A DNA stretch of 18,646 bases from Candidatus Woesearchaeota archaeon (lineage in GTDB: Archaea > Nanobdellota > Nanobdellia > SCGC-AAA011-G17 > GW2011-AR18), in the NCBI GenBank assembly GCA_018302765.1, contig JAGVZG010000009.1, forward strand, positions 1 through 18,646, read 5' to 3'. Within the stretch, counting starts at the first letter, position 1; every line of letters begins with the position of its first letter. The translations under genes were made by a program, and so were the position numbers. The notes beneath the pieces were generated by a model. That model was not told the DNA's origin. It searched no databases and was given only the letters and a program-made list of their open reading frames with translations. Positions 4,181-4,328 of the stretch are shown one piece after another.

Positions 4181-4328
4181 TTTACCGACAGTTCACCGAA
4201 CGGTTCGGTGACGTCACCTACGTTTACCGAACAAACCGAATAAATACTGTAAAAGAGGTTATTAAGGCTTAATAAAGAATAAGAAAAAACTAACTGTTCG
4301 GTAAGTTCGATAAACTGTTCGGTAAGTT
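4181..4328. repeat. Cluster of eight ACCGAA-type motifs (iteron-like/operator array)
   Basis: Six exact ACCGAA/TTCGGT copies (4195, 4204, 4226, 4235, 4297, 4318) and two one-mismatch copies (4184, 4306). Includes the inverted repeat TCACCGAAC-g-GTTCGGTGA (4193-4211) and the 16-bp direct repeat AACTGTTCGGTAAGTT at 4292 and 4313 (21-bp period). Confidence 0.9.

Follow-up and report, generated by a model that had tools for sequence, protein, structure and literature searches.

A unique repeat array upstream of a winged-helix protein gene in a Candidatus Woesearchaeota genome is probably a private operator of that gene

An array of short repeats (4181–4328) lies in a 373-bp gap that separates P1 (3290–4003) from P2 (4377–4994), two genes of the same direction, in the genome of a Candidatus Woesearchaeota archaeon, and on the sequence evidence it is probably a private, tiled multi-site operator through which the P2 protein controls its own promoter. 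The array is non-random, unique, conserved, and promoter-proximal, and it covaries with the recognition helix of P2. The physical binding of P2, its stoichiometry, and the sign of the regulation are what we infer. The initial annotation had proposed an origin auxiliary element, a centromere-like site, or a complex autoregulatory operator for the gene at 4377. The last of these fits best: in about 50 loci of the family the array or its equivalent lies directly 5' of a conserved BRE/TATA, adjoining the promoter of the P2 gene itself, and among the related genomes compared the sequence of the sites co-evolves with the DNA-reading residues of P2.

The stretch of DNA analyzed, referred to here as the window (18,646 nucleotides), is contig C23 of a genome (G000) of 1.02 Mb in 28 contigs, with roughly 29–30% GC, whose relatives have been entered in databases under Candidatus Woesearchaeota, one of the DPANN lineages. 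In four DNA sequencing runs the contigs were identical, with zero informative variants. The gene order w432, ArgRS, w2803, P1, a long intergenic region (IGR), and P2 was kept in every relative examined, and the genes 3' of P2 differed between relatives. In the window, the region 3' of P2 (5063–8350) holds genes for Fic and an HATPase_c_2 protein, orphan genes, and a XerA-like tyrosine recombinase; this variable region may be an insertion hotspot. The idea of a toxin–antitoxin pair, with P2 as the antitoxin or regulator of Fic, was rejected, because Fic is found 3' of P2 only in this genome and has its own TATA. At the other end of the window (14705–18550), a T2SSE ATPase of the type IV pilus/archaellum type is split by an intein with a LAGLIDADG endonuclease.

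The gap begins with a T-rich, G-poor spacer 3' of P1 (4004–4180, + strand; 49% T, 29% A, 5% G), in agreement with the T-skewed stretch previously noticed 5' of the array. It contains the sense-strand motif CTCAYTT at 4006–4012 and 4069–4075. In 30 orthologous P1–P2 IGRs this motif occurred 62 times in the sense and 0 times in the antisense orientation, against an expectation of 4.6, and one genome (G004) has eight copies. We take the spacer as a probable terminator or insulator zone behind P1. The CTCAYTT motif may be a multi-terminator or insulator, or a target of P1, the recognition helix of which is conserved.

The conserved heart of the element is the distal array (4181–4241), made of six tiled units of 9–11 bp, which are, in order, TTTACCGACA, GTTCACCGAAC, (c)GTTCGGTGAC in reverse, GTCACCTAC, GTTTACCGAAC, and AAACCGAAT. 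Their YACC starts are at 4183, 4194, 4215, 4225, and 4234, and the reverse unit is at 4204. The hexamer ACCGAA, which the initial annotation took as the repeat motif, does recur, but the true unit is the 10–11-bp GTTYACCGAAC, itself of the form GTTC-N3-GAAC. Two perfect palindromes missed in that reading are also present: TCACCGAAC-G-GTTCGGTGA (4193–4211), with 9-bp arms that are invariant in most class-A loci around a central base that varies, and the overlapping GGTGACGTCACC (4207–4218), with a GACGTC core. The word GTGACGTCAC, from the latter palindrome, is unique in the genome.

Downstream of the distal array is a 50-bp A-rich spacer (4242–4291) with the inverted repeat ATTAAGGCTTAAT (ATTAAG-g-CTTAAT) at 4261–4273, as had been reported, followed by three proximal units in reverse orientation (4292–4328, i.e., –85 to –49 from the ATG). 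The direct repeat of 16 bp and 21-bp period was likewise found as described, in the form of two identical copies of AACTGTTCGGTAAGTT at 4292–4307 and 4313–4328; a weak unit lies at 4305–4315. The proximal units stop 8 bp before the BRE/TATA of P2 (4337–4352, + strand; TAGAAAAG-TATAAAA), the TATA of which (4345–4351) is 25–32 nt 5' of the ATG. This spacing, shared by other genes of the window, suggests that the P2 mRNA is leaderless or nearly so. A sigma-70 promoter and terminator scan of the region gave nothing above shuffles, its model being irrelevant to an archaeon.

Exact copies of ACCGAA were found at 4195 (+), 4204 (–), 4226 (+), 4235 (+), 4297 (–), and 4318 (–). The eight copies in about 150 bp that were originally counted are thus six exact copies plus two that differ at one position, namely ACCGAC (4184) and, in reverse, ATCGAA (4306). 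Outside the array the hexamer occurs in the window only at 8405 and 17783, the two positions already known. Across the 1.02-Mb genome there are 48 matches, and the sole cluster is that at 4181–4328; the Poisson probability of at least six in 148 bp is 7e-17, uncorrected for the ~6,900 windows. The longer words are still more restricted: five of the six ACCGAAC in the 1.02-Mb genome, and all five YACCGAAC, are in the array. Scanning the genome with a position weight matrix (PWM) built from orthologous units gave no second credible cluster, the one sub-threshold pair being inside the ArgRS coding region, and the idea of a P2 regulon was dropped on this ground. An enrichment test on the top 7-mers was too crude to be informative, as low-complexity shuffles reached equal scores. 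The lone ACCGAAC beyond the array (C5:79220) lies 3–4 kb from a ParA/MinD-like gene (C5:75315–75932) and an ORB-like word (C5:76167); this closeness is probably a coincidence.

The relatives present the same picture. The array accounts for 5 of the 7 genome-wide copies of the motif in G001, 6 of 8 in G015, 4 of 6 in G006, and, over two cassettes, 10 of 11 in G011; in these four genomes the clusters of YACCGAAC are confined to the P2 locus. In the complete genome G025, which has a motif of its own, all three CGTTCACT sites are within the array. The two array–P2 cassettes of G011 are diverged and each is on a short contig (C62 and C78; loci L024 and L026), reflecting either a strain mixture or a duplication.

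Conservation was measured as the mean pairwise column identity over 13 orthologous loci, whose P2 proteins are 50–79% identical. The distal array reached 0.80, and its core (4191–4232) 0.87, against 0.34–0.37 for the flanks; the flanks, spacer, and proximal zone together ranged from 0.34 to 0.48. The distal array is kept in the orthologous intergenic regions, where the initial annotation had proposed to look for it. Also conserved (0.79) is the BRE/TATA, with the consensus tAG.AAa.TATAAAa. The spacer with its ATTAAG palindrome had an identity of 0.37, not above background in these 13 loci. The proximal copies were found in 11 of the 13 loci; L023 and L027 have them in forward orientation, and L028 and L032 lack them. 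The mirror layout originally described, with left copies forward and right copies reversed, is thus real in this genome, but the orientation and presence of the proximal copies vary among relatives.

The proposed array binder, P2 (205 aa, + strand), has an N-terminal MGxFxFFKKK peptide, a long coiled-coil helix (residues 7–72), an acidic disordered linker, and a C-terminal winged helix (wHTH, residues ~97–203), which is predicted with a pLDDT of ~90 in the AlphaFold2 (AF2) model. Its recognition helix is nearly invariant among class-A orthologues. The N-terminal peptide is found family-wide as M-[GV]-[FLW]-[FW]-x-[FL]-F-K-K-K, down to 25% identity (e.g., MVWWLFKKR); it resembles membrane-targeting or partner-binding peptides, and P1 is without it. 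The 41 homologues of P2 are all unannotated Woesearchaeota proteins, and with the ESM Atlas matches included they are unnamed Woesearchaeota/Nanobdellota proteins; no named family was found for P2 in Pfam, NCBIfam, or the ESM Atlas. In the Pfam test for MarR-, ArsR-, or PadR-type proteins, the matches were below the gathering thresholds (DUF6293_C, 21.2 bits against 27; DUF7343, 19.5 against 27.6), and that to PaaX (17.6 bits) was far under its threshold of 264. Foldseek and VIA returned only generic wHTH matches (MarR, Orc, kleisin, TubR; Z 10–12). Among PDB sequences, the best DNA-binding match of the P2 profile was AspA, at E 0.01–0.014 and over the helix and wing only. Searches of plasmid and phage collections gave zero P2 homologues. 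A literature search yielded nothing on the P2 family or on DPANN origins.

The distant homologues of P2 (25–40% identity), from the same family, other families of the order, and metagenomes, provided the link between the array and the protein. Nearly all of the full-length ones have an array at the same place, just 5' of the TATA, but with units of their own. Eight array classes were distinguished, including ACCGAAC, CTACGAAC, GTTCGGTGAAC, CGTAACTTAC, GTCTACGAC, GTCAACTTGAC, GTTCACTTAAC, and CGCGTAATATA, and a further lineage-specific unit is GTCACTGAC. The P2 recognition helices across these classes include RSTITQF, RSTLSEY, RPMISNY, RTTISQY, RSAMAQL, and IKALISNY, among others. Identity of the P2 helix was 0.81 among members of the same array class and 0.38 between members of different classes, in genomes that are related and hence not independent; for the P1 helix, the values were 0.69 and 0.52, and it is identical across classes A and B. 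Because the class of the array follows the P2 helix more than the P1 helix, we assign the array to P2 and not to the pair. The earlier suggestion that the flanking wHTH pair binds it holds insofar as a neighboring wHTH protein is the likeliest binder, but the covariation singles out P2. Four relatives that match the N-terminal domain only (L100, L101, L103, and L104; ORFs of 132–146 aa as called) have no upstream repeat array, and these are a natural negative control. In one locus (L095; G046:C35:51700–53000), tandem arrays, of CGTAACTTAC units and then of GTTCACTGAAC units, precede a single P2 homologue, a state in which specificity may be in the course of changing.

According to the mechanism that we propose, P2 would dimerize via its N-terminal helix, and its wHTH domains would fill neighboring 10–11-bp units of the GTTC-N3-GAAC type. 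The roughly six units of the distal array would be covered by adjacent P2 domains, all on the same face of the DNA, and the three inverted proximal units would carry the P2 complex to about 8 bp from the BRE/TATA (4337–4351), the occupancy by P2 setting the output of its leaderless promoter. We lean slightly toward negative feedback, which could come about if P2 spilled over onto the BRE/TATA or if the 50-bp spacer formed a loop. In archaea, sites upstream of the BRE/TATA are commoner for activators than for repressors, and the array is in such an activator-like position, so the sign of the regulation is uncertain. One point against an operator is the distance in class A, where 135–195 bp separate the conserved part from the start codon, a long way for a simple operator. 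In addition, since the only strong sites are at the P2 promoter and no regulon is evident, autoregulation alone leaves the order-wide retention of a single copy unexplained.

This last point leads to the surroundings of the locus. The sole orc1/cdc6 gene of the genome is on contig C15, in a dp1–cdc6 arrangement with two ORB-like boxes (TTCCAAAGGAAATGTAGGTGTAG, C15:33276 and C15:33350) just 5' of it, the layout (L142) being dp1 (PolD small subunit) <- cdc6 <- boxes -> PRC-barrel protein -> LonB. By synteny with three other genera (G001, G015, and G006), the array is ~7–9 kb from cdc6, and in 48 of the 48 genomes that have P2 and cdc6 on one contig, among them complete genomes and contigs over 100 kb, the distance is 5.6–34 kb (median 9.0 kb). 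In G025, a basin of the detrended GC skew (276–326 kb) starts just past cdc6 (272 kb), and the array (287 kb) falls inside it. This agrees with an origin close to cdc6 and P2, although the basin is too broad to separate them. A further ORB-like box, TTCCACAGGAAATGATGGGG (3466–3486), is inside the P1 coding region; it is also found within P1 in the same three genera (L014:9672, L015:10452, and L016:9913), and a conserved STGNDG-NQSINHLINQSI / (AATC)n segment follows it. The array itself (4181–4328) has no ORB-like box, such boxes being at C15:33276, C15:33350, and window position 3466, and the judgment that its motif is unlike ORB was borne out, as TTCCANNGGAAA...GGGG and GTTYACCGAAC are unrelated and the array is tied to P2. 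The array is thus probably not oriC, yet it regularly accompanies the origin.

The best of the alternatives, although we regard it as appreciably less probable than not, is that P2 and the array are a single origin-proximal handle with which the origin is positioned, segregated, or tethered to the membrane, i.e., a centromere-like or anchoring landmark. Handles of this kind have analogues in ParB/parS, AspA, TubR/tubC, RacA/ram, and Noc. Such a role is compatible with an operator, and possibly autoregulation is its by-product, as in ParR/parC. The array is a unique cluster of sites in the replicon beside a conserved gene, with one array per genome, and a run of six to nine tiled units is what one expects of a centromere more than of a simple operator. 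Of the 121 genomes of the order, 92 have the cassette in one copy; its distance to cdc6 is confined as given above, and the skew basin of G025 contains it. The hydrophobic-basic N-terminal peptide is kept across the family, and AspA and TubR are among the matches of P2. However, there is no linked motor NTPase: the ParA/MinD-like genes map to contigs C4, C5, and C27, none of the variable genes 3' of P2 is an NTPase, and none was found between cdc6 and P1. Linkage to the origin could be synteny inherited with ArgRS and cdc6, P2 homologues are absent from the plasmids and phages searched, the fold matches are generic, and the role of the peptide is a conjecture. A more speculative extension, to which we give about a one-in-four chance in our own estimate, is that P2 and the array form an unrecognized DPANN chromosome-handling system, in which P2 would coat a single origin-proximal centromere, its N-terminal peptide would tether the origin region to the membrane or to a partner in division or segregation, and P1, with the ORB box in its gene, would couple all this to Orc1.

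Binding by P1, alone or as a P1–P2 hetero-oligomer, either at the GACGTC core or over the whole array, appears unlikely. P1 (237 aa, + strand) has an N-terminal coiled coil, an NQSI-rich linker, and a C-terminal wHTH, and was always directly 5' of the array–P2 unit in the relatives examined. The two proteins are weak paralogues (E 1e-3) with the SFSxVKxDI motif and a coiled coil in common. The P1 recognition helix, LSE(H/G)CIR, is conserved across array classes, as is the GACGTC/NACGTN center of many arrays; the GACGTC core of the palindrome at 4207–4218 recurs, often centrally, in other array classes, and is found at –180 to –1 in 36 of the 78 family loci, often at –64 to –66, against an expectation of ~0.01 per locus calculated from base composition. 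But classes D, G, and H have P1 and yet lack GACGTC, and the variable part of the array tracks P2 rather than P1. A complex prediction for the two coiled coils, P1(1–60) with P2(1–76), scored 0.02, which speaks neither for nor against binding.

It is very unlikely that the array serves a second replication origin, as its iterons or as an auxiliary site; such an origin would use the ORB-like box in P1, with the T-rich stretch as its unwinding element. The box is ~730 bp upstream and conserved in three other genera, the T-rich stretch of 177 bp adjoins the array, the repeats are helically phased, and the locus is origin-proximal. The canonical dp1–cdc6 origin with its two ORB-like boxes is, however, on another contig, ~8 kb away by synteny, and for this reason the origin auxiliary element of the initial annotation finds no support in the form proposed. 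In other lineages (L047–49; IGRs of 120–190 bp), the arrays abut the P2 TATA without any AT-rich stretch; that of the window, at 26% GC, is not unusually AT-rich for a genome of 29–30% GC, and its T-skew is strand-specific, as expected for terminators. Moreover, P2 is not Rep-like. Finally, pairing of the forward distal with the reverse proximal copies into a long cis hairpin or cruciform (an attenuator or small RNA) is barely credible: the region does fold better than shuffles (z = –3.97, –42.3 kcal/mol), but the pairing is lost in L023, L027, L028, and L032, where the proximal copies are forward or absent, the units are conserved as sequence with no compensatory change, the region is upstream of the promoter, and an Rfam search of 3900–4500 gave zero matches.

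To our knowledge, hardly any information exists on the organization, segregation, or regulation of chromosomes in DPANN archaea, with their genomes of ~1 Mb. The locus described here offers a near-universal, single-copy, lineage-specific family of DNA-binding proteins with a predicted cognate site in each lineage. It is also a natural specificity code, in which variants of the recognition helix are paired with variants of the repeat, and which can be tested without culturing. Its conserved position beside oriC, with an ORB box inside a gene and, in this genome, dif/XerA, makes the locus a candidate organizer of an archaeal origin region. Even if P2 is only an autoregulated regulator, the array would be a clean new example of a tiled-array operator in archaea.

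Repeat arrays acting as operators or centromeres are already known, while the P2 family, its array code, and its position at a DPANN origin are undescribed in the literature that we found. In the account of PMC9178275 (citing Schumacher et al. 2015), AspA of the Sulfolobus plasmid pNOB8 is a wHTH protein that binds a palindrome upstream of its own gene and forms a superhelical complex. As far as that account describes it, P2 resembles AspA in being a small archaeal wHTH protein whose gene has palindromes upstream of it, although the match is below significance (E 0.01) and P2 has an additional N-terminal peptide, coiled coil, and linker. According to the same account, the site of AspA is one palindrome plus spreading, on a plasmid, with ParB and ParA genes following; that of P2 is a tiled multi-unit array on a chromosome, with no ParB/ParA genes after P2.

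In the ParR/parC system of plasmid R1 and TubR/tubC of pBtoxis, arrays of repeats at the promoter are both centromere and operator (PMC9178275). The likeness lies in short, helically phased repeats at the promoter of the gene of the binder itself and, for TubR, in the wHTH, as TubR is among the fold matches of P2. In contrast, ParR is a ribbon-helix-helix (RHH) protein, the repeats are unrelated, and a filament-forming NTPase (ParM or TubZ) is encoded in those operons and absent here. The heptad arrays of Omega (pSM19035) and the SegB sites upstream of segAB, which are coated superhelically (PMC9178275), share with the P2 array short units that abut one another, some direct and some inverted, upstream of promoters, and SegB is an archaeal, chromosomal example. 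Both proteins are RHH and not wHTH, however; SegB is operonic with the ParA-like SegA, and Omega serves several promoters.

Plasmid iterons are direct repeats of 17–22 bp, and the Rep initiators that bind them have a WH1–WH2 structure. The array is similar in having phased repeats beside the gene of a winged-helix protein, at a site unique in the replicon. Nevertheless, it is not of the plasmid-iteron type, since its units are of 10–11 bp, abutting, and in mixed orientation, P2 has one wHTH after a coiled coil instead of WH1–WH2, and the canonical origin is elsewhere. With the ORB and mini-ORB elements of Orc1/Cdc6, it has in common that they are origin-region repeats for a winged-helix domain, one ORB-like box being 730 bp upstream; the sequence of the array, however, is unrelated to them, and it is to P2, rather than to cdc6, that the array is tied.
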